Program-made: the position numbers and the translations under genes
Notes under the pieces: model-generated
Told to the model about the DNA's origin: nothing
Seen by the model: the letters and a program-made list of their open reading frames with translations, nothing else
The model's database searches: none
NCBI GenBank assembly: GCA_963825865.1
Contig: CAWGVG010000026.1
Span: 96,001-160,000, forward strand
Direction: 5' to 3'
Length of the DNA: 64,000 nt
Source: an uncultured Nitrososphaeraceae archaeon
GTDB lineage: Archaea > Thermoproteota > Nitrososphaeria > Nitrososphaerales > Nitrososphaeraceae
Shown: positions 4,392-54,018 of the stretch, one piece after another
Layout of the letters: every line of letters starts with the position of its first letter
Position numbering within the stretch: the first letter of the stretch is position 1

Positions 4392-5667
4392 ATGACCTTA
4401 CAACAGCTATTTACTCCCATGCAATTCTTTCAGGATGCTAATTCATTATCTTCACCTGCATTGTCCTCTGATTTCATAGTTCAAGACTTTGCAGTAATTA
4501 TGATAGTCGCCGCAATAATGCTAGTTATTACCTACAAGTTAAAACAGCCGATGGCGGTTGGTTATATTTTAGCAGGTATGATCATAGGTCCTCACACGCC
4601 ACCGTTTAGCTTGATACGGAATGTCAATACAGTAAATGTTTTTGCAGAATTAGGAATAATCATGCTTTTGTTTGTCATTGGCACTGAATTCCCTATCGCT
4701 AAACTTAAATCTGTAGGTAGAATTTCAGTTGTTGTTGCTTTAGCGGAAACAATTGGAACTTTATTATTTTCATTCTTTGTAGCACAAGCATTAGGATTTT
4801 CATCCTTTGATTCTATGTTTCTTGCATTAGCGATGTCTATTACAAGCACAGTAGTAACTATTAGAGTTTTAGAAGAACTTGGTATGATAAAGGATGAGTC
4901 TACCATTTTGCTCTTGGGTATCTCTGTTGTAGAAGATATTATAGCCATTACGACACTTGGCGTGTTTCAATCGATTGCTATTAATGGAAGTGGTGGAATA
5001 TCTATTTTACATATTTCTATTTCAATAGGTATAGTAGCGGCATTTATAGGTAGCATACTAATCCTTGGTTCTAGGTTTATTCCAAATATTATTGACAAAA
5101 TCAGCAAAACAAATGATTACGCAATACTTTTGATTGTTATTCTTGGACTAGCATTTGGTTTATCCTTTGCAGCTAAAGGCCTTGGTCTATCAGCTGCTAC
5201 TGGAGCATTCCTGGCTGGAGTATTAGTAGCAGAGTCAAAAAATGCAGCAACAGCCCGTGTAATCACTATCCCGCTCAGGGATATGTTTGTCTGCTCTGTT
5301 CTTTATATCGATAGGCGCATTGATGGAAGTATCTCTTATTCCTTTGTTTATCGTCCCTGCGTTGGTGCTTATTTTAAGCTCGTTTGCTTCAAAGTTCTTG
5401 ATAATAACCCTCATCGTGATCAGATCATCAAAATACAACAGCGTAACGGCGTTAAGAACAGGATTTGGAATGGCATCGGCCAGAGGAGAGCTATCCTTAA
5501 TTGTAGCTAAAGGAGGTCAGGACGTAGGTGCTATCTCATCAGCGGTCTTCCCAATAATAGGCGTAGTAACTATTGTAACAATTTTTATGACTCCTTATAT
5601 ACTCAAGTTTGGAAGGCAACTTACAACTTCATTATCATCATTTGCATCAGAAGAAGAAAAGGAATAA
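4392..5667 (+). CDS. cation:proton antiporter (CPA2/KefB-like), frameshift near 5290
   Basis: GYILAGMIIGP, FAELGIIMLLFVIG, GAFLAG, RGELSLIVA motifs across two ORFs. Confidence 0.88.
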
Positions 5668-6246
5668 AAGGACAATGAAAACCCACGACAACTATGGTTC
5701 TGTTTTAACGCTGACATAGGGATTACTATATCATGTCATCCCCAAACACCGTACATCTATATTTATATACACTGGAGGAATGAGTGTTTACATTTATGCA
5801 TTGATCAAACTCATGTAAAACACTAAATTTAAAGGAAATAAAGGATAGTATTTGATTTGCAAATTTTTTTGAAAGACAGATGACTGTAACTCATTTGGTA
5901 ATAATGTGTTGAATAGCAAAAATGACAAGGTGGAAGGTATTTAATGAAAATATCATTGGCATATCAAGCTTAACAAGTAATAACAACAACAATAATAATA
6001 ATATTATTAATTTCTCTTCCTTTTCCTAAACTACCATCTCCTCGTCAGTTAAGCCTTATCCAATAAGCCCTCTGTTTAAATGACTGAATCTCTTCTTGCT
6101 TTATATCAACAAAATTATCACGTTAATTGGAATGAAGTTAAGAGATTGAGCTCCAATGTGAGATGATTAAGTTCCTTTTACTAACAGCACATACATACAC
6201 TAAGTTGAAATACCTGTGAATATACAATGAAGACATCCGTAATAGA

Positions 6247-6720
6247 ATGCTTCCAAGTATAATATCAAAGGTAGCTTCTGTGAAAATCAGTCGAAAGGAA
6301 GGAACAGTCAGAACACCAGGTAATGATGATGGCGATGACAGCGACGGCAATCAGCCTAGCGACCATGACCGTAGCTATGATGATAACAATAAAGAAGGAA
6401 TTCACAACAAATGTGAGAGTTTAGATGAGGGAACATTTGCATTTATGCATTGGATGAGCTCAGCGGACAAGAAATCCTTAACTTCTGACAATCCCATAGT
6501 TTTAGTGAAGTTTGTCAATGACAAACATACAATACTATATGATACAGATATACAATCTGAAATATATATAGAGATAGACAATGGTGTTCCTTACTGTAAG
6601 CATTGCAAAGCAGACGATTGCTCTCATGTGGGCTTTGCTATATGCGTTGAGCAATTTTATGGGAACAGACGTGGAAGTGGAAGAGAAGAAACAGTAGAAG
6701 ATATCATACTTGACAATTAA
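6247..6720 (+). CDS. hypothetical protein with C-terminal CxxC-x4-CxH zinc-binding motif
   Basis: YCKHCKADDCSHVGFA. Confidence 0.6.
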   Translation: MLPSIISKVASVKISRKEGTVRTPGNDDGDDSDGNQPSDHDRSYDDNNKEGIHNKCESLDEGTFAFMHWMSSADKKSLTSDNPIVLVKFVNDKHTILYDTDIQSEIYIEIDNGVPYCKHCKADDCSHVGFAICVEQFYGNRRGSGREETVEDIILDN

Positions 6721-7181
6721 TATGCCACGATGTTTCTGATATTTAGAAACGCAGCCAACAAGATTTCAAGGAGGTTTGGTCCTTGCATATAGGGGGTTAG
6801 CTACCATCAATAATTCCAATTTTTATATTGTTATTGTGTCTTAGGAATGCAAATTACCTTGTCATTTTTGAATATGTGGTTATATCGTTACTGAATCTCC
6901 ATAGACAGACCTATCAATCTATATGTCACTATTCGAGATTCATAGAAATTATAATTAAATAACAAATACTTATTTTAAAATTGAACTTATACTTGCTAGT
7001 GTTTGTCTCAAGCCTTTAGAATAAGAGTATTCCACAGAAATGAGTATGAAAGAGTCAAAAAACTTATTTCAGATATCAGTATTAATGAATTTAAGTTTAC
7101 TCGAGATTGATGTTAATAAATGAGTAAGATAGTTTTTAGCGAGATTCCCAATTTCTAGGTACCTGGATAGATAACGCTGTT

Positions 7182-7575
7182 TTGGACGTTCTGTTGAGAG
7201 TGGGGTGTCACGAGCTCGCTCAATTTACTAAAACTAAATTTAAAAGAACTGACAACTGGATTTTTAGAACCGCTACACCTTTACCAGATTTACAAGTTGG
7301 CGGAGATGCATTACTCAAAGAATTGGCAGCATCATTAAAAAATGAATTGGAGGAAAACGGATGATCCTTTTATGTGGTATTCCTTCTGAGACCCCCCACT
7401 AGCAATGGTTGCCAGAGAACTTGACAAATTGAGTATACCACACATAGTATTTAACCAGCGCGAATTTGCCAATTCGAGAATAGGTTTCGAAATGTCAAAT
7501 GATCTTATAAAAGGCAAGCTCCAATTAAAAGAGAGCATATCGCCTTGAAGATATTCGAGGTGTCCATATTAGATT
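7182..7575 (+). pseudogene. remnant of two coupled genes; second is N-terminus of a RimK-like ATP-grasp protein
   Basis: ...PLPDLQVGGDALLKELAASL* overlaps (ATGA, 7361) MILLCGIPSETPLAMVARELDKLSIPHIVFNQREF (frameshift in C-run); truncated. Confidence 0.5.
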
Positions 7576-7885
7576 AATGTTGCTTACCAAAGAATACCTT
7601 AACATCTGGCCTATAAAGATAATAAATAATTATTGCATTTATGATAACAGGCAATATAGATACTACATTACCAGTTACAATTGAAGCAAGACCTAAAGCA
7701 ATTCCAATAAATGATAATACTAAAGTTATAGTCCAAGCCCATCCTTTTCCTTTCCATAAACCATACGCCATGACCAAAAATGCAATACCCAATGGTATGA
7801 GTATTATACTAACAAGAAATCCTATACCACTAATTATTGTGAGCAACGCTATTATAGTTACTCCTAAAGGTCTAGATTTTTGCAT
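7574..7885 (-). CDS. small membrane protein (RPLGVTIIA family)
   Basis: RPLGVTIIA...GLWKGKGWAW...YYLYRPDVKVFF. Confidence 0.8.
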   Translation of the reverse strand: MQKSRPLGVTIIALLTIISGIGFLVSIILIPLGIAFLVMAYGLWKGKGWAWTITLVLSFIGIALGLASIVTGNVVSILPVIINAIIIYYLYRPDVKVFFGKQH

Positions 7886-8223
7886 ACTGTTTTATTATCA
7901 ATGAACGATACTTATTAATTTTATAAAAAAAGAATCAGATATTTTGTTATATCTCATCTTTGTTCTTTCCCATCTCTTTCATAAACGACTTAATTGGTTC
8001 CCACAATCCCTTCTCCGCTGGATCAGGGTCATTATTACCATTTCGTTTTCACATATAGGAAAACAAAATATTTCTGTAGAGGAAAACTAATCACCTCATC
8101 CCTCCACGAATTTCTTTTGTATTTGTCCTAGCCATCTAATATCACCATCGTTTGATTGATTGCTTGTAATAAACCTCAAAATCTAAGCCTGCGATATACT
8201 GTGGGAACTACTTTTACTAAATA

Positions 8224-9281
8224 GACCTATTGCGTAATTACGAAAGAAAGAAAATCTCTTTATGATACTTAACTTTGGCTTGCTTGCTTTCTAAAGTAAC
8301 ATCATTCCATTGGTTCGCATTATCCTGAAATTTACTAGTCCTGAAACAATGTCAGAAGCATGATCATATCTTACAAGCTTATTTCTAAATTTAGTACCCA
8401 TTATTCCGAACTTTTTAATTCTGCTCACAGTATGCTCGACTATTACCCTTAGCTTGGAATGCTTTCTATTGTGTTTCTTTTCTTCATCTGAGAGTTCACT
8501 TTTCCTTTTCTTTCTAACTGGAAGCACAGACTTTACAGTGGGAAAGTCATTCTGAACTCCCATGTACCCAATCAAATACATTCTCAACTTGCGGTGGAGT
8601 TGTTGTAGGATGTTTATTTTTGAAAATCTCATAATCATGTATTCTTCCCCGATCATGACCTGTTTTGTGCAGTATGGTACCTCATTGTTTACCATATATT
8701 GTGTCTTTACAGTATGTTTCTTCTTTTTGCCAGAGTAATAGCTCTTTCTCCTTCTCTTGTTCTTTGGTCTTGGGATCTCTTGTTCGGAAGAGTCAATAAA
8801 TGCTTTGAAACCGGGAAAGTACTCTTCTACTTCATCTATAGTTCTAAGTCTTCTTGTACAGTTTATACAACTTCTTTGGCAATGGGATACACAGTTTGAC
8901 AAGTGGTTCAAGCATAGATATATCTCTGCAGATATTACTCTGGTCAAGATCGAACAGAAATCCTGAAAGTGTATACGTTATGTACAGCCTATAATACACT
9001 AAAAGTATCAAGAACCTTTCTTTAACTTTTAGTTTGAATGGTCTACCCGCACCTACTTTCCTTTCTCTTTTCCTATTGGAAAGACGCTTTCTTTCATGCT
9101 CATCATATTTTGATTCTATATCTTTGGCAATAACATCAAATTCTGATATTTCAAGTCCAGTAAATGATCTAAATAACAAAGACCTCTTAGATAGTCTAGC
9201 ATAAGACATCAAGACAGCATCACCGAATGAATGCTGTACAACGTAAAATATAGCTGTAAGCCTTCAATTACGCAACAGGTC
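8224..9281 (-). mobile_element. IS5-family (ISL2/IS702-like) insertion sequence
   Basis: TIRs GACCTATTGCGTAATT (8224-8239) / AATTACGCAACAGGTC (9266-9281), 1 mismatch, flanked by TA on both sides; encloses transposase. Confidence 0.9.
8291..9212 (-). CDS. IS5-family transposase (HTH + DDE), frameshifted
   Basis: FRSFTGL..., IDSSEQEIPRP, YSGKKKKHTVK, RVIVEHTVSRIKKF. Confidence 0.88.
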
Positions 9282-9472
9282 TAATGTAATTAAATATTCC
9301 ATTTCTATATGTCGACTTGCCTAATTCTCATACATAATGAAGAAAATGACCACAATGAATAAGACAGTTTCTTCATATGGCACCAAAGTGAGATGAGTCA
9401 TGATATCAATTCATTTATTTATTTGCTAACCTTCATAACAATGTATAAGACTATTTGATGATTTGTAGCATC

Positions 9473-10373
9473 ATGCAAAACAATAATAATCTGCAGGATA
9501 ATCGACTTGTGGAAAAATTTTGTGAACTATATTCAGCGTCAGAATCAAAAACACCATCATCCTCCAATCATCAAGGAAACAGAAAGATCACTTACTCATT
9601 TGTTACGCTGTTGCAGGATATCCAGATATCAAAACCACAAAAGAAATTATATCGACTATGATACAGGCAGGTGCTGACATTATTGAAATAGGAATTCCAT
9701 TTTCTGATCCCATTGCAGATGGTCCTATAATTCAAGAGACTTCTTTTATTTCCTTAACTAATGGAATAACACCGGACAAGAGTTTAGAAATTGCTAAAGA
9801 CATTAGAAAGGAATTTCCAAAAACCCCTATAGTTTTGATGACATATTCAAATATTCTCATTAAAGCAGGATTAAGTAAATTTATAAAAAATGCAAAACAA
9901 TGCGGAGTCGATGGTTTCATACTTCCTGATATGTCAATTGAAGAATCTGATAAATATGTTAAAGAAGCATCACAATTAAACCTTGCAACAATATTTCTAG
10001 TATCACCTAACACAAATGAAGAAAGATTGCGCTCTATTGCTTCTAAATCCAGTGGATTTCTTTATTTAATTTCAACATATGGAACAACAGGTATTCGTAA
10101 TTCATTTGAATCTCTCTTGTGCAGAGCTATATTAAAAACAGCAAGAGAGTTGTAGGTTCTTCACTTCCCATTGCAGTGGGATTTGGTATTAGTAAGCCAG
10201 AACATGCTAAATTCATGATTAAAGCTGGTGCAGATGCAATAATAGTGGCCAGTGCAATAATAAATATGATGAAGATTTATGCATCTGATAGAAAGAATGC
10301 AAAAAAGAAGAAAGAAATGCTCAAGGATATAAGCAATTTTGTATCAATCATGAAAAACGCGTGTAGAACATAA
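9473..10373 (+). CDS. trpA: tryptophan synthase alpha subunit (two frameshifts)
   Basis: GADIIEIGIPFSDPIADGPIIQ, GFLYLISTYGTTG, PIAVGFGISKPEH. Confidence 0.93.
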
Positions 10374-11021
10374 CCATATAAAACGTTTGAACATAAAACA
10401 TAACCTATAAACTCTTACTGTTCATGCAAAACAACAAAGGGATAACAAAGGGATAATACGAGCTGATAACGATTCTTTTTAAAGCCTATTTTTCTAAATT
10501 TACTTTAATGTTCAAAATATGTAAGGATATGTTAGAAGGATAAATGATAGCAGAGGGCCTTAAGAGGTATCACGAAGATGACTTGAAAAATTGCAATATC
10601 TTAGTTTGATATATTTATATCCATCTCAAGTAGGGGCTTGCTTTCATGATATAATCAACTGCCAATCCATCCTTTCTCGGGTCCTTGAAGACAGGTGAGC
10701 GCCAGGACTATAAAGAGTAAATACAGAAATACCAAAAGTCAAAAGTGTTTACTGATTGGGTATTCCTTATGGATTCAAAAGAGACTTACAGTTTATTAGT
10801 CCTCTGCTGCAATTCTTAATCGATAACTTTCATGATATTAACAAAGTCTAGATATCTATCACACTGTGTTAAGGCAAGTGGGTGGGCACTTCCTTCTTCA
10901 CTAAATTGCCTGGTTCACTACAGCCTATTCTCATTGTGTTAACATTTGTAATTGGTTTTGAATCATTTTTGAGTTTTTAGTATATTACTTTGACACCATC
11001 TGCTATGTTATTTTCAGCGGT

Positions 11022-11407
11022 GTGAGCCAGTGTGATGCCATGTATCAAGTCGATTACAGAGATACAGGACTTCCACTTGAAACAATTCGTTCGGTAAGTA
11101 AGGTTTCTGACGGCATAGAAGTTACTGTAAGCGTGTCAGCACCACAGACAATGAGATATGATGGTTTAAACCTTGCTGATATAAAAGACCCTGCAAATAA
11201 TAAGTCAGTCTTTCAAGCAAGATACCAAGTATGGTGGAAAGAGCCTACAAAGGGATTTGAATCCTTAGGCGGAGTATTGTGTCCTCGGGTACTGCTTCTT
11301 GTTTTCGGGGCTCTGGTCGTTTGGATGTTTTTGTTAAGGCTATAGCGGGTGACATTAATAGCAAGTGGTTCCAAAATGGGTGGTCAAACTGGCTGGCTGA
11401 CTCCTAA
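11022..11407 (+). pseudogene. fragment containing a PLL/fucose-lectin-type beta-propeller repeat
   Basis: With frameshift near 11280: FESLGGVL-SSGTASCFRGSGRLDVFVKAIAGDINSKWFQNGWSNW. Confidence 0.55.
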
Positions 11408-11645
11408 TTCCACAGAATCTGTTTTGATACTAATTTCGGTAAGTAAGCAAAAATAATAAGAGGAAACGGTATTCAAAGAGTTATTTTTTTGAATGCATCA
11501 CAAATTAGGTCGTATTTGTATATTTGTATGTGTTTTTTTATGATACATTCACCACAGTCTTTAACTTCTTGGTTATTACATTATTCAACAACCAGCTATC
11601 ATCTTTGTCTTTCCATCAAACCATTAACATATCCTGTTTCAAGCA

Positions 11646-11945
11646 TCAATAGCGCGTACAGAACATTTGCAATATGTGTCTGTACCTATTCAATCCCACT
11701 ACAGGGTCATTTTCTACATTTGTTTGAGAGGTGTATGTTATCACTGTAGTATTCTTCCCCAATATTTTCAATTTAAGAATCTCTTTGATTTGTATTTGTG
11801 AATCATAAGTTTTTGTTGTATATTCCAACTCATTATTTACTTTTTTAGTTGTTAGACTCCTTGTAATTCCAACAAAGAACTCAGGAAAAATTTGTTCTAA
11901 ACGTGTATCTTTAAGAGCACGATAAATGACATTCAGCTGGAACAC
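11646..11945 (-). CDS. hypothetical protein or fragment
   Basis: 99-aa ORF, no motif recognised. Confidence 0.3.
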   Translation of the reverse strand: MFQLNVIYRALKDTRLEQIFPEFFVGITRSLTTKKVNNELEYTTKTYDSQIQIKEILKLKILGKNTTVITYTSQTNVENDPVVGLNRYRHILQMFCTRY

Positions 11946-12239
11946 GTAACGAGAGAGATTTGCTAATTGACGACATATTACACTATTTCTAATGTATACT
12001 CAACTATCCAATCATTTTATAGGTTGTTTTAGATGGCATGCGCTAATCTAGATAATAATCCTTGCCCGATTATATGACATAGTCTATATCATACAAAATT
12101 TATTTTTTCCCTTCTAGACAATGTAATGAATTTCATGCTTAATAACTAACATCTCTGTTCTATTTCTGTTGCATGCAGATGACTTTCCATTCGCGACAGA
12201 AGTCTAAATTGTGATTGGTCAATCAATCATAGTTTATAT

Positions 12240-12611
12240 TTGTATTCATCACCGCTAATATTAACAATAATAATTATGATAATGGAAGCAAGGTGTGGTC
12301 ATGTAGAAGAAAAATTATATGCAGATGCACACCATGGGCTATGTAGAAAATGCCACTCCAATTTTGCATTTCTGTTAGAGTTAGAACAAAAGTTTGGTGA
12401 AGATGCATTAATAGAGTACTGGTATGCCAAAATACTCACTTATTCATCATCAGAAAGAAAAACAGAAGAACTAGACTGCTTTATAGATCATTTAATTGAG
12501 TTATATCAACAGAATTTAATCAAGTTTCCGTCAAAAGAGAAATATATCAGGAAAATGCTATATATGTTGCATTCACTTAAAAAACCATTTGATATAGAAA
12601 CATTAAGATGA
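12240..12611 (+). CDS. hypothetical protein with Cys/His motif
   Basis: ARCGH...HHGLCRKCH; 123 aa. Confidence 0.6.
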   Translation: MYSSPLILTIIIMIMEARCGHVEEKLYADAHHGLCRKCHSNFAFLLELEQKFGEDALIEYWYAKILTYSSSERKTEELDCFIDHLIELYQQNLIKFPSKEKYIRKMLYMLHSLKKPFDIETLR

Positions 12612-12729
12612 AGATTACATGACCATTTTTCTGCATATGATTAAGTCAACTGTCATAGTTAATGTCGTCATATCATCTTCCAAATCGTTTGTCCAAATAT
12701 TCTGATACTACAGCTTTCTGTTCTTCTAT

Positions 12730-13030
12730 ATGTTCATAGCCCTTCATCAAGCCACCCCTCCAGTTGTCGTACTTCCTCCACCTCCTCCTCCATCCCCTCA
12801 AATTCCGCCTACATGCCAACCAATTGTCGACAATATCAAACAGCTGAAGAGCGATTTGCAGGAAATGCAGAATGAACTTAATACGCCGCCATTTCCAACT
12901 GCTGGTCAAAGATTGTAAATAGTATAAAACGAATCAACAACCAGATCGCTGAGAAGCAAAAGGAACTTGACCTATGTGTCCAGCAGACGCTCTGGAAAAC
13001 CTTCTCCGAACTGAACGCTGATGCCAACTT
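12730..13030 (+). pseudogene. Pro-rich linker plus Cys-bounded coiled-coil fragment
   Basis: PPPPPPSPQIPPTCQPIVDNIKQLKSDLQEMQ..., continuing after a frameshift to INNQIAEKQKELDLC. Confidence 0.35.
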
Positions 13031-13092
13031 TTCTGCCTTGAACATACGGGCGAGCATTATTTCGTGCTAATTCATAATTTTATAATAATTTC

Positions 13093-13500
13093 TCATCTTT
13101 TTTCTGTAAATGGCATAACTTTATTTTCAATAACATCAATGACTTCAGATTTCAAATCAAATGAAAGCAAGAGATAGTAAAATTTGTTTTCTTCTTCTTC
13201 TCTTCCTTCTCCACCAAACCTCATTGGAACAGTTACACGAATAAGCCTTTCATACTTACCAATTGAATATTCTAGTCTACCTATTTTTGATTCAAAATCT
13301 TCCCGTGTAGCAGCACGAAGAACGGCCTGTATAGCATAATGTGAAGTCTCTTCCTTTGTCATTAAAGGCATTAGGTTTTGTCTATATTCTGTAGTAATTA
13401 TACTACCAAGGTTATTGACTATGGCTACAAACCTAATAGAACTATCTAACTGCAGTATTTTTTTGCAAAGAACAGTTAGATCCTCTTCAGTTAATGTCAT
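13093..13500 (-). CDS. thaumarchaeal roadblock-like protein
   Basis: LCKKILQLDSSIRFVAIVN..G...EYR pattern. Confidence 0.75.
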   Translation of the reverse strand: MTLTEEDLTVLCKKILQLDSSIRFVAIVNNLGSIITTEYRQNLMPLMTKEETSHYAIQAVLRAATREDFESKIGRLEYSIGKYERLIRVTVPMRFGGEGREEEENKFYYLLLSFDLKSEVIDVIENKVMPFTEKR

Positions 13501-13750
13501 AGCAATACTATAAGCGTTGTTTCTTATAACGTTAATATTTCTCCTTCAAACATATGATGGTGGTTTTATATGACCACATTATAATTTTAAGATACTAGTA
13601 AAATAAACTTTTTGCTATATCATATAGAACAGGAAAGATAATCTTTTGCATAAAAGATTGTATAAGCCCTTAAAATAATCCCTAGATATTAAAAATCATT
13701 GAGCACCAAACATTAATCTCAGAGGTCCGCAAAGTGACGTATGATAAAAA

Positions 13751-14896
13751 TTGTCTGGAACATATGAAGTATTAAACGGATATGCAACTGATAGTGGAAC
13801 GAAAAGATATATGGAATATGCAGTTCAAAGAGGAAAGCCTTCTATTCACTTTCGTCTTTTTGATGGACTATACTTATCAAGTATTGGCATGGGCACATAT
13901 CTGGGCGACCTCAGCACAGAAAATGATAAGGCTATGGAAAATGCAGTCTATGAGTCAATCAAATCTGGTGCTGTAAATGTCATAGATACAGCTATTAATT
14001 ATCGTGCTATGAAGTCAGAGAAAAGCATAGGTAGAGCATTGTTACGTTTGACAGAAGATGACATTATATCAAGAGACGAAGTTTTTATTTGTACGAAGAA
14101 TGGCTACATTACAAACGATGGCGACTATCCACGCATAGATGTAATGGAATACATGCAAAGAATGTTCATATCGACTGGGCTAATAAGGCCTGATGACATA
14201 AGCTCTGGCTATAATGTTCTCAGTCCTAACTATATTGAAAGATGTATGGACAAATCATTAACTAATATGCATCTGAATACTATAGACTTAGTATACATTC
14301 ACAATGCATTCGAAAGTTGGCATGAGGACATCAAGAGAGAGGAATTTATGCAAATGCTTAGCAGAGTCTTTGAAGTATATGAAAGATACAGGTCAAATAA
14401 CAAGATCCGCTATTATGGAATGGCAACATGGACCTGTTTTAGACTACCGCCAGATAATAAAGAATATCTATCTTTAGAAGAGGTTGTTGATCTAGCTGAA
14501 AAGGTGGGGGGCAAGCAACATGGATTTAGATTTATTCAACTCCCATATAACTTAGCTTATAGCGAAGCGTTATTACTCAAAGGTCAAAATGTAGGAACCG
14601 AAAAAAATTTGACAATACTGGAGGCTGCTGAGAGGTTAAAGATAAAATTGTTTACTAGCATTCCATTATTCCAGGGCAGATTGCTCAAAGCCCAAATTCC
14701 TGATTATATGGGCTTAACTGATCAGGTAGTGAAACTGATTCAGGTAATACGTTCTAGTCCTTCAGTTATCGCACCGCTTATAGGTTACAAGAAGCCACAA
14801 CATGTTGAACAAAACCTAAAGATTGCAAATATCCCGCCACTAAATGATGAAGAGTTTAAAGAAGTAATTCATTCCTTATTAAAAGGAAATTTATAG
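13751..14896 (+). CDS. aldo/keto reductase
   Basis: SSIGMGTYLG, NVIDTAINYR, IDLVYIHN, FIQLPYNL. Confidence 0.92.
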   Translation: MSGTYEVLNGYATDSGTKRYMEYAVQRGKPSIHFRLFDGLYLSSIGMGTYLGDLSTENDKAMENAVYESIKSGAVNVIDTAINYRAMKSEKSIGRALLRLTEDDIISRDEVFICTKNGYITNDGDYPRIDVMEYMQRMFISTGLIRPDDISSGYNVLSPNYIERCMDKSLTNMHLNTIDLVYIHNAFESWHEDIKREEFMQMLSRVFEVYERYRSNNKIRYYGMATWTCFRLPPDNKEYLSLEEVVDLAEKVGGKQHGFRFIQLPYNLAYSEALLLKGQNVGTEKNLTILEAAERLKIKLFTSIPLFQGRLLKAQIPDYMGLTDQVVKLIQVIRSSPSVIAPLIGYKKPQHVEQNLKIANIPPLNDEEFKEVIHSLLKGNL

Positions 14897-29235: not shown

Positions 29236-30241
29236 ATGGATACAAATCGGGGAGTAGTATATCGATTTAGCGAATCTGAACTGGCCCTTGATCAATTTGC
29301 CGATGATGTAGAAAAAGGACTTGGCTCTCAAAGCAAGTATCTCAAACCAAAGTACTTCTATGATCAAATCGGTTCAAAAATATTTGAACAGATATGCATA
29401 CAACCAGAATATTATATAACACATATAGAATCTGATATACTAAGAAATAATTCTCCTAACATTGTCAGCATGTGCAACGGTGATATCAGTATAGTGGAGC
29501 TCGGAAGCGGCAGTTCCTCTAAGACTCGAATTCTCTTGGAGCATACGTTGGAAAAACAGACCTTTCTCTACTATTTTCCTATAGATGTCTCTCATAACAT
29601 ACTCCATCAGACGGTTCGAAATCTCTCTTCAGATTTTTCAAATCTTCGTACAGATAGGGATTTCTTCAGATTATGCTATTGGTATAGAAAAGGCTACGGA
29701 GTTAATTATTACTCAATCTCCTGTTACATCAAGAAAACTAATACTTTTTTTAGGATCGAGCATAGGAAATTTTGAACCGTTTGAAGCAAGGTCTTTCCTT
29801 CAGATGCTAAAAGACTTGATGAACAATAAGGATCTTCTGCTAGTAGGATTTGACCTGCAAAAAGAGCCAAAAATACTTGATGCTGCATATAATGACAGGG
29901 CTGAAATGACAGCTAAATTCAATCTTAATCTACTATCGCGAATTAACAGAGATCTAGGGGGAGAATTTGACATCAAAAAGTTTAATCATTATGCATTTTA
30001 TAATAAAAATAAGGAGAGAATAGAGATGCATTTGGTGTCAAAGGTCAATCAGAACGTGCACATCCAAATTATAGATGCAACATTTAGGTTTAAAGAAGGA
30101 GAATCAATCCATACAGAAAATTCATACAAGTATTCACTTGAACAGATACAACTTCTAGCTGAAGAGAGTGGCTTTGAACTAAAAACGAATTTCTTAAATC
30201 AAAGAAAATGGTTTGACTTAGCCCTCTTATCTCCATTATAA
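29236..30241 (+). CDS. egtD: L-histidine N-alpha-methyltransferase (frameshift)
   Basis: PKYFYD..GS.IFEQIC..PEYY, ELGSGSSSKT, FLGSSIGNF, AYND, IHTENSYKY. Confidence 0.93.
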
Positions 30242-30280
30242 CGAAATTAAATTGAATAGCATTGACACACACAATATCAA

Positions 30281-31628
30281 TTAAATGTCAATGGCACAGC
30301 GGAAGCCTGAGAAAAGTATTCTTTCCTGCGGCTTGAAATAATTTCGGTAGCTGTTCCTTATCTGATCGGTTGGGGTAGCAAAGCTTCCTCCTCGAAGTAT
30401 CTTTTGATTTATTGCCCATTTGTTTGTATATTCAGAAAACTTTGGCTTAAAGCCAGGATAGAGAACATATTCTGAAGATGTCCACTCCCATACATCACCT
30501 ATCATCTGATAGCAGCCATAATAGACTCTTACCATCTGGAAATGAACCTACCTTAGATGGGGCCCATAAGCAAGACTCAAGTAAATTACTTTGTTTTGGA
30601 GTAGGTTTTTCATCTCCCCATGGATATAAAGTCTTTTTTTGTAATTCTTCATTCCAACTTGCAGCTTTTTCCCATTCTGCTTCTGTAGGAAGTCTTTTTC
30701 CAGCCCAGTTAGCATAAGCATTGGCTTCATAGTAACTTACATTGGTTACAGGTTCATCAGGGTCAATTTCTCTCATACCTCGAAAGTCCTTTTTCATCCA
30801 TGCATCATCTTCTTCTTTCCGCTCCCAGTAAAGTGGAGCTTTCCATTTTTCCTCCTTTACAAGTTCCCAGCCATCGGCTAGCCAATAGTGGAAATCATCG
30901 TATCCATCATCCTCAATAAACTTCATAAATTCGCCATTAGTCACAGGTCCCACGTCTATTTTGAAAGTAGGAAGGTAAACCTTATGCTCCGGAAGTTCAT
31001 TATCATAGCAAAAACCCCCGCAGCTAAAACCTAATTCGTATATCCCACCAGGTATTTCAACCGTGCCGGTGGGCTTTTTTACTTGCTCAGAAGGTGGCGC
31101 TAATCTGCTTATAGGTTTATAATTATCGGCAGGATCTGGGAAGCGCTGGAAGTAATGCTGGAAGTCATAAATCATAAGTTCCTGATGCTGCATTTCATGC
31201 TGGTTGGATAGCTTAATATCATATTTTAGTTCTTCTGATAATTTGTTAGAAGATTCCGTCTTGTTCAAAAACGAAATGACCTTTTCTTCAATAAATGTTC
31301 TATACTTAAGAGTCTCATTTACAGTTGGTCTTGGAAATTTACCCCTCTCGGATTTAGGAAGTATCTTCCCAAACTTCTGGTAGTAAGAGTTAAGGTATTC
31401 CAAATTGACATTTTCGTTAGAATAAATCTCTTCTCCGTATTTTTCCAAAATCTTTTGGAAGAACCAAGTTACATGGGCAATATGCCAGTTTGCAGGACTT
31501 CCAAAAGTATTTGACTGCATAACTGCATCCTCAATTTTTAACGGTTTGAATAGGTTAGATGTATTTTTTCTAACCTTAATGAAGTCAGCAAGCAAATCAT
31601 TGATGCCTTCGCTGAGTATTTGAGTCAT
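30281..31628 (-). CDS. egtB: ergothioneine biosynthesis sulfoxide synthase (frameshift)
   Basis: [22 protein letters not shown] iron motif, [14 protein letters not shown]...LRGGS. Confidence 0.92.
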
Positions 31629-32043
31629 ATTATATCGAGATCTCTAAAACTTATTAATAGTTTCTTATTTCATGTAGTCAATCTTCAAAGAAGTAAAAAT
31701 GGAAAATAAATGAAAAAACCTGCAGACATAAGAAATAATTATTTTTTTAATTTTCTATGATAGAGCGTGGAGTAGTTTTACAATAATGATAACAGTATTG
31801 CTAGATTATGGTATTATATGTTAGTGACTATTTACCTACGGAAGTTGTGTTAGTTAAAAGATAGTCTCACACTTTGAGAGCATTTTGCATTGCACGGAGG
31901 AATTATTGTCATTATTGTTATTTTTTTATTATTATTGTGTTGTAAATATTTATCTTCTTAAAGTCAAGATGCAATATACTACTAACCTGTATAGCATAAT
32001 AAATTCAAGGTATAAACTTAAATCCTTGAGTAGACATTACTAT

Positions 32044-32285
32044 ATTGTCCGGCTAGCCGAAAGAGATGAAAATCCGTCATTCAGATCTGCATAGTAGGTA
32101 AAGGCCTGCTATGTTTAAAGAAATGATGTGTTGGCATCATATGAACTATAGGTATTCTGCTAGTCTGAGAGATTTAGCAAATAGTCCAATCGTGTGGTGT
32201 TAAGGGCAAACCACAAGGCTGCGTGGAACCTGTGGGCTCAGTCTTGAATGGAAAGCCACATGTCTTCGAGTCTTAGTCGGATAAT
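32044..32285 (+). ncRNA. candidate structured ncRNA, copy 1
   Basis: Terminal helix ATTGTCCGGCTAG/TTAGTCGGATAAT, internal hairpins, motifs shared with 53168-53402, TTAAAT ~25 nt upstream. Confidence 0.7.
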
Positions 32286-32364
32286 CTTAAATGTATTTTT
32301 TGAATCTCGATACAAGAGTCAATATAGATTAATTAACAATAAAAAATTGGGCATAAGGGGTAGC

Positions 32365-50571: not shown

Positions 50572-51036
50572 TTAAAGGTCTAACAAAAATCTAGTAATGA
50601 CTTTATTTCTTTCTTGTATGATTTCCATTTCGTGATAAGTTACTGCTTTAATCTCTACTTTGTAATGGTGTTTTTTGAGATTGAGATACTCTCCCTTAGC
50701 AATTCCTGAAAGAAAATAACTATTGTCGTTGTTATTATTATTCTGATATATTTTGACTTTGAAAACTGAAATTAGGATATTCTCAACCAAAAGCGTTAGC
50801 AGAACTTTCTCTAACCAATCGTAAAGTAGACTTTTAAGGTCGTATCCCTTTGCTTGTATATTGATTTCTTGATTAGGCGAAACTCGCTCTATGTCAAACA
50901 TTGTGTTAACAAGGCCACAAGCTGAATTTTCAAAAGCCTCATCTAATGTGCAACCATATGCCTCTATAACAGCATCTGTCAGATGATCAAGGTATCGGAA
51001 TCGTCGATGAACTGATGACATATTTGTATGATTCAA
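50572..51036 (-). CDS. archease
   Basis: YLDHLTD..IEAYG, IKAVTYH, LDL C-terminus. Confidence 0.93.
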   Translation of the reverse strand: MNHTNMSSVHRRFRYLDHLTDAVIEAYGCTLDEAFENSACGLVNTMFDIERVSPNQEINIQAKGYDLKSLLYDWLEKVLLTLLVENILISVFKVKIYQNNNNNDNSYFLSGIAKGEYLNLKKHHYKVEIKAVTYHEMEIIQERNKVITRFLLDL

Positions 51037-51108
51037 AACTAACTAATTCAGTTTATTATATAATTGATCGTAAAATCTAAATGTCAACATCTACTGATTT
51101 CAAATGAA

Positions 51109-52416
51109 ATGATGAAATTAGAACTTCCTCGTGGAATGAGAGACCTTGCACCAGAAGAGTTCTATAACATTAATTATATTGAAGAAAAATTCCTTGAAAC
51201 GACATCCTTGTTTAACTTCAAATTTATGGAGCCGTCACCACTTGAGACTGCTCTGCTACTCTGGAGACAAAGAGTGGTGCATCTATTTCAAATGAAATAT
51301 ATAGTTTTATCGATAGGGGCTCCAGGAGCGTTGCATTAAGATTTGATCTTACAATTGGTTTAACAAGATTTGTAGGCAGCAAGAAGGGATTTGAAGATGC
51401 CAGTCAAAGTTGGAGCGTTCGCTGGTGTTTGGAGATATGACGAACCGCAGGCTGGACGATATCGATATTTTCATCAATGGGACGTAGAAGTTTATGGTTC
51501 ATTTAGTCAAGAGTCTGATGCTGAGGTAATTGAATTTATTTCGGTATTTTTCAAAAAGCTTGGGCTAGATGTAATCATTGAAATAAACGACAGACAACTA
51601 ATGGAAGAATATGTAAGGAACAGACTTGGTGTTTCAGATGAGCAAATGATCCTAGAAATGTTCAGAGCGGTCGACAAGGTCCAAAAAAAAGGTGCAAAAG
51701 GAGTTTATGAGGAATATAAGGATAAAATTGGGTCTTCAAAGCTACAAGCTCTAATAGATATATCGATGGTTAAGGGGAATATCGATGAAGTATTTAATTC
51801 AAAAAGAGATCTAATAGAGCTTGCAAATTGGAGTAAACTTGCAGGATTAATGGATTCATTAAAATCAAGAGGAGTCTATAATGCTCGAGTTAACCTTGGC
51901 ATTGTACGTGGACTGGACTATTATTCTGGAGTCGTGTTTGAGGCATTTGATCCCTCTTTACTTGATTCAGGTGCTCTGGTAGGTGGTGGCAGATACGATA
52001 GGTTAACTGATGCTTTTGGAAGAAAAGATATTGGCGCAACAGGTGCTGCTGGAGGAGTTGAAAGGATAGTGGGAGCCTTGCAAACCCATGGAATTTTAAA
52101 ATCAACGCCAAAGCCTATAATTTACGTTGCATATACATCGACTAATGCAAGTAAGGAGGCTATAGTAATAGCCTCTAATTTACGCAAGAGCGGAGTTATT
52201 ACTGACTATGACCTTCAAGGTAGGTCACTGGGAAAGCAACTACAAGATGCAAGCACAAAGGGTGCGCTATTAACAGTGATAGTGGCACCAGATGAAATTA
52301 AAAACGGACAGGTAACGCTTCGGTCAATGAAGGATGGTATTGAAAGTAAACAGAATGTAGAGGATCTAGCACGAGATCTGAACAGGATGATACCACCGCT
52401 GCTGCGACGTGATTAG
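51109..52416 (+). CDS. hisS: histidine--tRNA ligase (frameshifts in 5' part)
   Basis: LPRGMRD, WRYDEPQAGRYRYFHQ, RGLDYYSG, GGGRYD. Confidence 0.95.
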
Positions 52417-53167
52417 ATAGAGAACCTGTTACCATAACACGAGCACTTTTCGTTTTTATAATCGCATTTCATCTTTTTTTATCATAAACATAAATTTCTA
52501 ATTACAACTTCTGGAGGGTGCGAAGCTCCCAAATCAACGATACTCATTTTTGCCTTCAATTTGAAACGGATTGCACTCCATAGATATGTTTGAGAGTGCG
52601 AACTGGCGCTCGATGAAGACCTGTTATATATATATCAAATCCACCTTTTGAACTAAAGAAGAAGAGTTGATTGAATTCATTTCTTTATTTTATCTAAATG
52701 CTGCATATAGTCATTATCAAAGGAAATCTTGTAGGTCATCTTACTCTATATTGAGATCATATTATTTCATTTATGAATCATGCATCATGGTTAAATCTCT
52801 ATAAATGATACAGTTTGAAACAATTTCTAAAAAAAAGAGCATTTTCTAACTCAAAAAGATATAAGGTTACATATATGATTTGTAAATATTATGAATTACT
52901 ATAAGTAAAAAATACAAAGAACAGATTGTGATAAATTCATTGCAGAAGATGGGGCTTCCTCAAATAGAGGAATTGAAGCATATTTTGTATTAGATGGAAG
53001 AAATGTGCGGTAGCGTTTTGTCAATATAATTAGAAGATGTTTATCACAAATTTGCTATGGGAGCTGCAATAACCTATTATTGCTTATGACGTCGTCAATT
53101 ATATTCAATCTTATTTATTAATTGGTTTGACAGAAAGACATAAACTCTGCAATGCATCTGTATTTAC

Positions 53168-53402
53168 TATCCGATTGGCCGAAAGAGAAGAACGATCCAC
53201 CAATTTGCGCAAGGCTGCAAGTTTAGGCTTGTAGTCTCTTCAGAAATGGTGTTTATCGTGATATGCCGTAGGTTAACTACAGCTTCACCTGTAGGGAGTA
53301 CATGCATATATAAAGCGATAAGGGAAAACCACATGGCTGCCTCGTAGCCTATTGAAGTAGCTGTGCAAGGGAAGCCACATGTCTTCGAGAGCTGGTCGGA
53401 TA
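53168..53402 (+). ncRNA. candidate structured ncRNA, copy 2
   Basis: Terminal helix TATCCGATTGGC/GCTGGTCGGATA, same helix order and motifs as 32044-32285, CATAAA ~25 nt upstream. Confidence 0.7.
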
Positions 53403-53601
53403 TTATGATTAATACTGTTCTTAAACTGAATAGGAAATAAAGGCTGACGATATATTCGAATTACTCCAGGAAAGAGACATTATCCAAAAAAAACCTTAAG
53501 TTATGTACGCATTTAATTACAAAAGTACCCGAAAATTGAGGTGCCCATTGCTATTGTAATTCACATAGACTATACGATTAATATTGCGATCTCGTGAAAA
53601 C

Positions 53602-53779
53602 ATGGGACATGGTATTGATGTGCTAGAAGTCGCGACTGGTCTCAAAGTCGCATTAATAAATAGTGGACTTACTATCGAATCCCATACTTAATTTTGGACC
53701 TGTAGAAATTGCCTCGATAGTTGGAATAGATGTCTATGTAGCAAAAATTATCTCTTATGTAAAGTTTAAATTGGCATAA
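53602..53779 (+). CDS. small helix-hairpin-helix-like protein (frameshift)
   Basis: MGHGIDVLEVATGLKVALINSGLTIES-ILNFGPVEIASIVGIDVYVAKII. Confidence 0.5.
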
Positions 53780-54018
53780 AAAATTCACGAGGCAGTACAT
53801 CATACCACCATTACACCAGAAATACAGATTAACTATTATCATGAAGAATGCAAATTAAATGCAAATCTGTCTTTTTGCAAATAAGACGACTTTACACTCA
53901 AGTTTTTTGTTGATAAACAAGGCTTTCTTTTGCTGTAAGCCTTTGAATGATACAATCTAACAGCAACCTTTTGGAGGTGTTATTTAGCTTACTTATACTT
54001 TTTCTCTTATTTTTCAGT

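Follow-up and report, generated by a model that had tools for sequence, protein, structure and literature searches.

A covarying noncoding RNA family of Nitrososphaeraceae archaea, bounded by a bulge-helix-bulge motif and probably matured as a circle

Archaeal RNAs are cut and rejoined at bulge-helix-bulge (BHB) motifs, whose normal use is the removal of introns or the release of ribosomal RNA (rRNA), and excised archaeal introns circularise (PMC3326292, PMC7714728; statements about cited articles refer throughout to excerpts of them). In Thermoproteus the gene for the signal recognition particle (SRP) RNA is permuted and is repaired by BHB cleavage and ligation into a circle (PMC4731332). Small archaeal circles are also known among the C/D box small RNAs (sRNAs; PMC3326292), which are circularised by an Rnl-type ligase (PMC9014305), and among the isoforms of omega-RNAs (PMC12558985). 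In the excerpted account of a cultured model ammonia oxidiser, the noncoding RNAs (ncRNAs) named are SRP RNA and RNase P RNA (PMC13475601). Here we describe a structured RNA family represented by two copies, A and B, in the window, that is, the whole 64,000-nt stretch analysed (positions 96,001 to 160,000 of contig CAWGVG010000026.1, assembly GCA_963825865.1) from an uncultured Nitrososphaeraceae archaeon.

Like the circular SRP RNA of Thermoproteus, each copy appears to be a stand-alone ncRNA gene with a BHB motif at the transcript ends and a ligated circle as its product; unlike it, no known family matches, and a canonical SRP RNA is encoded elsewhere in the same genome. With archaeal transfer RNA (tRNA) and rRNA introns and the stems of pre-16S and pre-23S rRNA the family shares the helix-bulge-helix-bulge-helix form (hBHBh') with a 4-bp central helix and two 3-nt bulges (PMC7714728, PMC12918454, PMC3326292), and with the introns it shares the predicted passage of the excised piece into a circle, presumably by the same enzymes. 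It differs from those introns in having no host gene and in that the excised piece, not its flanks, is conserved and accumulates, with a large covarying fold. The circles of C/D box sRNAs and omega-RNAs are closed end to end without a BHB motif and belong to known classes, whereas the family described here has no C/D boxes, K-turn or transposon context. Among bacteria, comparative genomics has yielded the large structured RNAs OLE, GOLLD, ROOL and raiA. A complex covarying fold, wide conservation and high abundance are common to these and to the present family, which, unlike them, is archaeal, about 205 nt long and predicted to be obligatorily circular by way of the splicing machinery.

Covariation and fold of the RNA

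An initial annotation, made from the letters of the window, had singled out two look-alike stretches that share short motifs in the same order. Both stretches are present where it placed them, pairwise alignment recovers the motifs in the order listed, and the alignment and a covariance model built from 17 full copies identify A and B as two paralogs of one structured RNA gene (limits in Table 1). Their G+C content is 43-46%, against ~35% for the AT-rich window. Copy A folds at -85.5 kcal/mol, a value that none of 200 dinucleotide shuffles equals, and copy B at -77.7 kcal/mol, which one of 200 equals. Calling the second copy a twin understated the family: besides copies A and B (224 and 173 bits) the genome has a third good copy, on another contig (266 bits), as well as two decayed copies (60 bits, with the BHB motif lost, and 36 bits) and a contig-end fragment (32 bits).

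The compensatory covariation of the RNA family is strong. In a MAFFT alignment of 17 sequences from the window's own taxonomic family, 92.1% of the cells are paired on a 61-pair structure, compared with 31-42% when the pairing partners are slid by 1-3 columns, and 35 of the 61 pairs change on both sides, compared with 7-13 when slid; the observed pairing and double-change values are reached by none of 500 column shuffles. For 20 members from other taxonomic families the corresponding figures are 92.8% of cells paired and double changes at 44 of 53 pairs, in an alignment that was fitted to the model and therefore leans toward the structure. The closing helix, its CGAA(A)GA/TCTTCG extension, the second helix (CGTCATT/AATGATG in one copy, CACCA/TGGTG in the other), the GCATAGTAGG hairpin and the long arm, all of which had been drawn by eye in the initial annotation, are each kept by compensatory changes across the 17 members. 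A last helix drawn as GGCT/AGCC finds no support; the pairing that covaries there is GGC (in AAGGGC) with GCC (in AAAGCC), plus CC/GG with a hairpin between.

The mature RNA is predicted to adopt a four-way junction. Its first arm would be the short GAAGA/UCUUC stem; arm P3-P4 ends in a conserved RAAG loop within GG(U/G)AAAG(G)CC, arm P5 is long and variable, and arm P6-P7 consists of GGC-AAA-CC / GG-AAA-GCC plus a hairpin. The invariant bases GAUYC, GAGGGCAAACC and GGAAAGCCACAU cluster round the junction. A loop-loop contact probably links the long arm to the last hairpin, where AAUAGGU of the former is complementary to ACCUAUU in the loop of the latter, a pairing that is also kept as AAGU/ACUU and ACAGGU/ACCUGU. 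Two other interpretations of conserved segments were rejected: AAUGAUGAG, considered as a K-turn or C/D box, belongs to an ordinary helix that covaries (CACCA/UGGUG in copy B), and the conserved ACA, considered as an H/ACA element, has by eye neither a pocket nor a K-turn.

Searches of Rfam 15 at the gathering threshold gave no match in the whole window, and permissive scans, with E up to 10, in which copies A and B and two distant orthologs stood for three lineages, gave no recurring family; chance matches to ZFAT-AS1, the PyrD leader, mir-684, Streptomyces-metK and c-di-GMP-I-UAU were scattered, and none recurred. ARAGORN found no tRNA in the window. The RNase P RNA (RF00373, 169.5 bits) and the SRP RNA (RF01857, 111.1 bits) are canonical and lie on other contigs of the genome. 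No description of the RNA was found in the literature, supplements that might list it having lain beyond the search, and the main text of PMC12558985 makes no mention of Nitrososphaera, Nitrosopumilus or Thaumarchaeota. The initial annotation had set the element apart from tRNA, rRNA and RNase P RNA and had named a strong Rfam match to a characterised family as the outcome that would remove its novelty; its exclusions are borne out, and no characterised family matched.

Could the element be a permuted or very divergent version of a known RNA, such as an SRP RNA as in Thermoproteus, an RNase P RNA or a riboswitch-like aptamer, that the models missed? We regard this as very unlikely. The segment GGAAAGCC bears what we take to be a resemblance to RNase P CR-I, and GCCACAUG presumably resembles the B12 box; moreover, the Thermoproteus SRP RNA gene is a precedent for permutation repaired by BHB circularisation (PMC4731332). 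Against it, the RNase P and SRP RNAs encoded elsewhere in the genome are full-length as well as canonical, and the permissive scans of the four members yielded no recurring family, not even as a partial local match.

The splice motif and a circular ortholog

The closing helix together with CGAA/UUCG is a canonical archaeal BHB motif, and the terminal helix is a processing signal that lies outside the mature RNA. On the 5' side CGAA is followed by the bulge AGA in both copies, and on the 3' side UUCG is followed by AGU in copy A and AGA in copy B, giving two 3-nt bulges on opposite strands with the 4-bp helix between them. This motif is the best-conserved feature of the RNA family: a strict BHB rule describes 42 of 55 matches in the own taxonomic family and 16 of 20 in other families. 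The central helix occurs as CGAA/UUCG (36), CAAA/UUUG (11), CAGG/CCUG (5), CGGA/UCCG (3) and CGGG/CCCG (2), with the further variant CGAG/CUCG in G423. Across the 17 aligned members the outer helix (11 pairs) is 88.8% paired, with double changes at 7 pairs, and the short inner helix consists of two pairs, G-C in 17 of 17 and A-U in 15 of 17. The bulges read A-N-A (5') and A-R-N (3'). Those of their bases that the circle would retain, namely the A that ends the 5' bulge and the A-R that opens the 3' bulge, are fixed, while those that would be discarded vary.

Ligation at these sites is predicted to create, from the retained bases and the G of the central helix, a junction loop set on the GAAGA/UCUUC stem, GAGA or GAAA in 58 of 58 members that follow the strict rule; when copy B is folded as a circle, GAAGA/UCUUC is indeed closed by a GAGA loop that spans the junction. 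The UCUUYG strand takes part in both states. In the precursor its pairing with CGAA is G-C in 9 members and A-U in 8, and in the circle its pairing with GAAGA is G-C in 9 and G-U in 8, so that both alternative pairings covary.

Transcription from a promoter of its own is suggested by the upstream sequence. The TTAAAT that had been reported ~25 nt upstream of copy A is real, and the paralogs carry the same TATA-like box at the same distance; among the 74 members whose upstream sequence is long enough, 59 have such a box at a distance of 20-45 nt, with a peak at -26 to -24 (35 boxes). From archaeal promoter geometry the box probably acts as a promoter, and the position of the peak places the transcription start at the outer helix. 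A T-run (at least 4 T within 30 nt downstream) is present in 30 of 74 members, and similarity between paralogs is confined to about -70 to +260. A bacterial promoter and terminator scan was uninformative for this archaeon.

A circular form and its abundance are shown in one ortholog, L103:5026-5266 (148 bits against the model), which lies in a complete genome (G094) and to which three raw RNA-sequencing (RNA-seq) runs and one contig run were mapped. Read depth across 5041-5268 is 4,700-14,500, whereas the flanks do not exceed 270, and the RNA is covered tens to thousands of times above neighbouring genes. In two of the three raw runs (X21 and X23) the rest of the 1.7 kb examined (L103:4300-6000) is uncovered, with reads in 4 of 30 bins, as if only very stable RNAs had survived in those samples. 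A back-splice from 5249 to 5044, spanning 206 nt, is carried by 6,761, 5,885 and 11,139 first-mate-minus reads in the three raw runs, and in the fourth run it is also carried by an assembled contig, whose 236 nt are made up of the 206 and a further 30 that repeat. At least 97% of pairs place their first mate on the minus strand, which, given usual stranded libraries, makes the RNA one of the plus strand, the strand modelled. Taken together, the 206-nt back-splice and the depth profile indicate that the ortholog RNA is, or is read as, a 206-nt circle without the terminal helix. The sequence of the ortholog agrees with the length of the circle: its outer helix GCCAACUGGC/GCCAGUUGGC is followed on the 5' side by CGAA, the bulge AAA and G, and the 3' side reads C, UUCG and the bulge AAA, so that a canonical cut would release 5046-5251, which is 206 nt, equal to the observed length and inside the 4-nt ambiguity of the junction. 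Transcription of the plus strand, proposed earlier from the prevalence of G-U pairs, is seen in this ortholog at a very high level. An RNA-seq check for a discrete transcript of ~240 nt had also been proposed; the abundant RNA found in the ortholog measures 206 nt and is read as a circle lacking the terminal helix.

The archaeal splicing endonuclease, as known from tRNA introns, cuts after the second base of each BHB bulge, and archease is a known activator of the RNA ligase RtcB. The genome of the window contains two genes for splicing-endonuclease subunits (tRNA_int_endo), an RtcB gene and an archease gene, and from their presence we infer that these enzymes would cut and join the RNA. Transcription would start ~26 nt after the TATA-like box, at the terminal helix; the ends of the precursor would pair over 10-11 bp and, with the 4-bp CGAA/UUCG helix and the two 3-nt bulges, form a helix-bulge-helix-bulge-helix. 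The endonuclease would then cut after the second base of each bulge, RtcB, aided by archease, would join the ends of the excised piece, and the short flanks would be discarded. Ligation would create the GAAGA/UCUUC stem capped by a G-A-R-A tetraloop of the GNRA type that holds the junction. The archease gene lies 2.1 kb upstream of copy B, a closeness that may be due to chance.

On this evidence we consider it highly probable that each of the two stretches is a stand-alone gene for a structured ncRNA that matures into a covalently closed circle of ~205 nt. The core of the initial annotation, a plus-strand, independently transcribed, structure-conserved RNA family, is thereby upheld by the covariation, the promoter-like box and the transcription of the ortholog. 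Several observations weigh against so complete a picture. The strict BHB rule fails in 13 of the 55 and 4 of the 20 matches, mostly low-scoring or relaxed variants; in copy A there is a single C-C mismatch beside the 3' bulge, and its post-ligation stem contains a U-U mismatch. The junction in the ortholog reads is ambiguous by 4 nt, and a circle is told apart from a tandem DNA repeat solely by the single-copy complete reference and by the drop of depth to flank level at the junctions. Expression and circularisation of the window's own copies are deduced from that 148-bit ortholog. Support for the loop-loop contact is moderate: pairing over its 5 positions stands at 91.8%, 2 of them showing double changes, and in a duplex test of matched against mismatched partners 49 of 75 do better than the mean of the mismatched ones and 14 of 75 rank within the best tenth.

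The circle might instead be a by-product or intron-like spacer, the functional product being the ligated flanks, or it might be the remnant intron of a tRNA, rRNA or messenger RNA. The ordinary use of BHB excision, in which introns are removed or rRNA is released and the excised introns circularise (PMC3326292, PMC7714728), is what speaks for such an origin. Yet the invariant bases all lie inside the circle, no relationship is seen between the flanks of different copies outside the helix, an apparent start at the helix leaves a 5' 'exon' of just ~20 nt, depth outside the circle of the ortholog is 0-46 against thousands inside, and the window is without any tRNA gene. We give this explanation hardly any credence.

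Distribution and genomic context

The covariance-model search detected the RNA in 64 of 151 genomes and 13 of 18 genera of the window's own family. Each genome of genus g15, three of which are complete, has a single copy, while the 4 genomes of genus g18 have 5-13 copies each; in genera g2, g5 and g13 the RNA was not detected (0 of 21 genomes each). In other families, where matches are single-copy, it was found in 7 of 9 genomes of f4, 2 of 2 of f6, 2 of 13 of f7, 2 of 3 of f9, 11 of 24 of f10, 4 of 10 of f12 and 1 of 2 of f18, and it is carried by one genome each from another order of the class (G284) and another class of the phylum (G423). In the phylum sample, a BHB-flanked RNA lies beside a conserved protein gene in three genomes of two distant families, f44 and f57; a family-specific BHB rule gave 4 matches against 0.2 expected, of which one (L185, a repeated coding domain) was discarded, whereas a generic BHB finder was uninformative (454 matches against 382 in shuffled sequence). 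Overall, the RNA occurs in the own family and in no fewer than seven others of the order; within the class, its fold and processing motif are conserved along with it in at least nine families. The negatives in these counts mean 'not found' and not 'absent', since the models hold few distant members and the filters were strict. Model R2 in particular (RNAalifold on a MAFFT alignment of the 3' domain) contained just 2 pairs and is near a sequence profile, and its negatives in the samples of class and phylum count as weak evidence that the RNA is absent there.

Many assemblies break in or at the RNA gene (G015:C276:1-240; G016:C76 and C113:1-238; G048:C295:1-210; G075:C562:1-214; the end of G006:C185), which fits near-identical multiple copies that assemblers cannot resolve.

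These copy numbers invite the view that the unit is a small non-autonomous mobile element, resembling a miniature inverted-repeat transposable element (MITE) or a short interspersed nuclear element (SINE), with the terminal inverted repeat as a transposase site and selfish copies. The ends do form an inverted repeat of 10-13 bp, some genomes carry 5-13 copies, many copies are found, as is usual for repeats, at the ends of contigs, the duplicated unit extends just from about -70 to +260, and decayed copies exist. Nevertheless, we judge a mobile element to be most improbable. The inverted repeat and the internal helices evolve by compensatory substitution; orthologs are single-copy in most genomes, and close relatives share the local gene order around them; the unit has its own promoter-like box; collections of phages, plasmids and viral contigs gave no match; and the ortholog yields a processed RNA in huge amounts. 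The 20 copies examined have neither a transposase nor an integrase next to them; the initial annotation had named homologs with target-site duplications and transposase-end identity as the mark of a MITE. The multi-copy paralogs have no protein neighbour in common in the neighbourhoods examined.

The genes around copies A and B are ordinary chromosomal ones, encoding an EgtD-like methyltransferase, an EgtB-like enzyme, an NMT1-type binding protein, histidyl-tRNA synthetase, an ABC-2 transporter, archease and thioredoxin. Adjoining copy A, 29585-31628 holds the EgtD-like methyltransferase gene (+) and the gene of the EgtB-like FGE-sulfatase/DinB enzyme (-), probably for ergothioneine synthesis. 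Copy B lies within ~1.6 kb that contains no open reading frame (ORF) of at least 60 aa, and its flanks, 52417-53165 and 53405-54018 (750 and 610 nt), have no Rfam or tRNA match. The histidyl-tRNA synthetase ORF upstream of it (51391-52416, +) matches profile positions 95-307 of the catalytic domain only, and a 91-aa ORF just upstream of that (51064-51339, +) has no Pfam match; a misplaced start, a frameshift or splitting of the gene may account for this.

Table 1. Positions of the RNA copies, their signals and related genes (plain numbers are window positions; other entries give genome, contig or locus)
Feature	Position	Strand	Basis and remarks
TATA-like box, copy A (TTAAAT at 32018-32023), ~26 nt before first base of precursor	32018..32025	+	sequence; predicted promoter
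Copy A precursor	32044..32285	+	limits called by covariance model, 224 bits; fold z = -5.3
5' BHB half, copy A: outer strand 32047-32057, central CGAA 32058-32061, bulge AGA 32062-32064	32047..32064	+	sequence; alignment columns 4-21; follows strict BHB rule
Predicted mature circular RNA, copy A, 207 nt, cut after second base of each bulge	32064..32270	+	deduced from motif and 206-nt circle of ortholog
3' BHB half, copy A: central TTCG 32265-32268, bulge AGT 32269-32271, outer strand 32272-32282	32265..32282	+	sequence
Six-T run 11 nt 3' of copy A precursor, possible archaeal terminator	32296..32301	+	sequence; weak support
Archease gene	50572..51036	-	profile match, Pfam PF01951, E = 4.6e-39; putative role in processing
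TATA-like box, copy B, weaker (CATAAAC), 21-27 nt before precursor	53139..53145	+	by eye; missed by the TATA pattern used for the family count
Copy B precursor	53166..53404	+	covariance-model match, 173 bits; fold z = -3.4
BHB, copy B: outer strands; central CGAA / TTCG; bulges AGA, AGA	53169-53179 / 53391-53401; 53180-53183 / 53384-53387; 53184-53186, 53388-53390	+	sequence
Predicted mature circular RNA, copy B, 204 nt	53186..53389	+	sequence; BHB rule
Third good copy in the window's genome	G000:C4:558-806
Decayed copy, 60 bits	G000:C29:77235-77453
Decayed copy, 36 bits	G000:C41:1673-1933
Contig-end fragment, 32 bits	G000:C17:1-47
Genes for the 219-aa protein	G000:C25:2571-3212; L156:5325-5984; L054:4106-4771

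A candidate protein partner and what the RNA may be for

A protein of 219 aa without a Pfam or NCBIfam match recurs as a neighbour of the RNA gene across taxonomic families, and we regard it as a candidate partner of the RNA and as a lead. Its AlphaFold2 model has a mean confidence (pLDDT) of 92.5, the best Foldseek matches are to the PD-(D/E)xK superfamily (CdiA-CT 4g6v at E = 5e-4, XisH, SfsA, NucS and Can2) with template-modelling (TM) scores of just 0.2-0.33, and D80, E93 and E95 are invariant in 14 sequences. The two genes lie at most 800 nt apart in 23 of 23 genomes of f4, f6, f7, f9 and f10 in which both were found, arranged with the RNA after the protein gene, convergently, or with one gene between. 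The distance is 30-55 nt in the three genomes of f44 and f57 that have the BHB-flanked RNA, and in the own family 4 of 8 genomes have the two genes within 1.3 kb of each other. The three large genera of the own family in which the RNA was not detected also lack the protein (0 of 21 genomes each).

The partnership has evidence against it as well. In the phylum sample the protein occurs in 59 of 151 genomes and the RNA was detected by the models in 2 of 151; 12 genomes of f13, f15 and f19 show no RNA within 2.5 kb of the protein gene; and in f12 and in the window's genome the two genes are on different contigs. The joint loss is weakened as an argument by the fact that adjacent genes can be lost together and that kin are not independent. 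In the window's genome and in G017 the protein gene lies 660-820 nt from the RNase P RNA gene, the distance in the window's genome being 800 nt. At 14 loci of other families, none had an RNase P RNA near the circular-RNA gene, and one locus had an SRP RNA and a tRNA nearby. At L154 (G029:C2, positions 4433-6418, family f6) the circular-RNA gene is clustered with a tRNA gene, the gene for the 219-aa protein and an SRP RNA gene.

A nuclease-fold neighbour raises the question of whether the RNA is the guide or scaffold of a nuclease system, comparable to an omega-RNA, with the PD-(D/E)xK-fold protein next to it. The protein, which has no known family, adjoins the RNA gene in many taxonomic families and in three arrangements, and circular omega-RNA isoforms exist in archaea (PMC12558985). 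However, neither TnpB, IscB nor a transposase was found near the window copies and 18 others, whose neighbours are of the kinds EgtB-like, NMT1, HisRS, ABC transporter, histidine kinases, PhoD and patatin; no variable guide-like segment was seen at a fixed place; the protein is widespread without detectable RNA; and the fold matches are weak, with TM about 0.3. A guide RNA of this kind seems to us unlikely.

Returning to the stand-alone circular RNA, the functions first proposed for the element, a ribozyme, a protein scaffold or the RNA of a mobile system, all remain, the last being the weakest. As a tentative suggestion, in which our confidence is low, the circle may serve as a stable core of a ribonucleoprotein (RNP) or as a catalytic RNA in a housekeeping role, its partner perhaps being the PD-(D/E)xK-fold protein. 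A bolder proposal, and a speculative one, is that it belongs to an ancient RNP of ammonia-oxidising archaea and their relatives, in which an obligatorily circular, GNRA-capped four-way-junction RNA produced by the tRNA-splicing machinery, possibly a catalytic or guide core, acts with the PD-(D/E)xK-fold, nuclease-like protein in a role comparable in rank to that of RNase P or SRP. If so, the 5-13 diverged paralogs of some soil lineages could give variant particles.

Biogenesis as a conserved, abundant, BHB-processed circular ncRNA is well supported for the family and is extended by analogy to the window. The other RNAs known to pass through BHB cutting followed by ligation are introns, the precursors of rRNA and a single permuted SRP RNA. 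The family would be a new class of substrate for the splicing endonuclease, as well as a circular RNA scaffold that is natural, genetically encoded and highly stable. Few microbes of soil and sea are as abundant as the ammonia-oxidising archaea. Unannotated copies of the gene will take a large share of the reads in rRNA-depleted transcriptomes and will break the assembly of genomes that carry many of them, and the RNA, with its recurrent protein neighbour, is a concrete candidate for a new RNA-protein machine.

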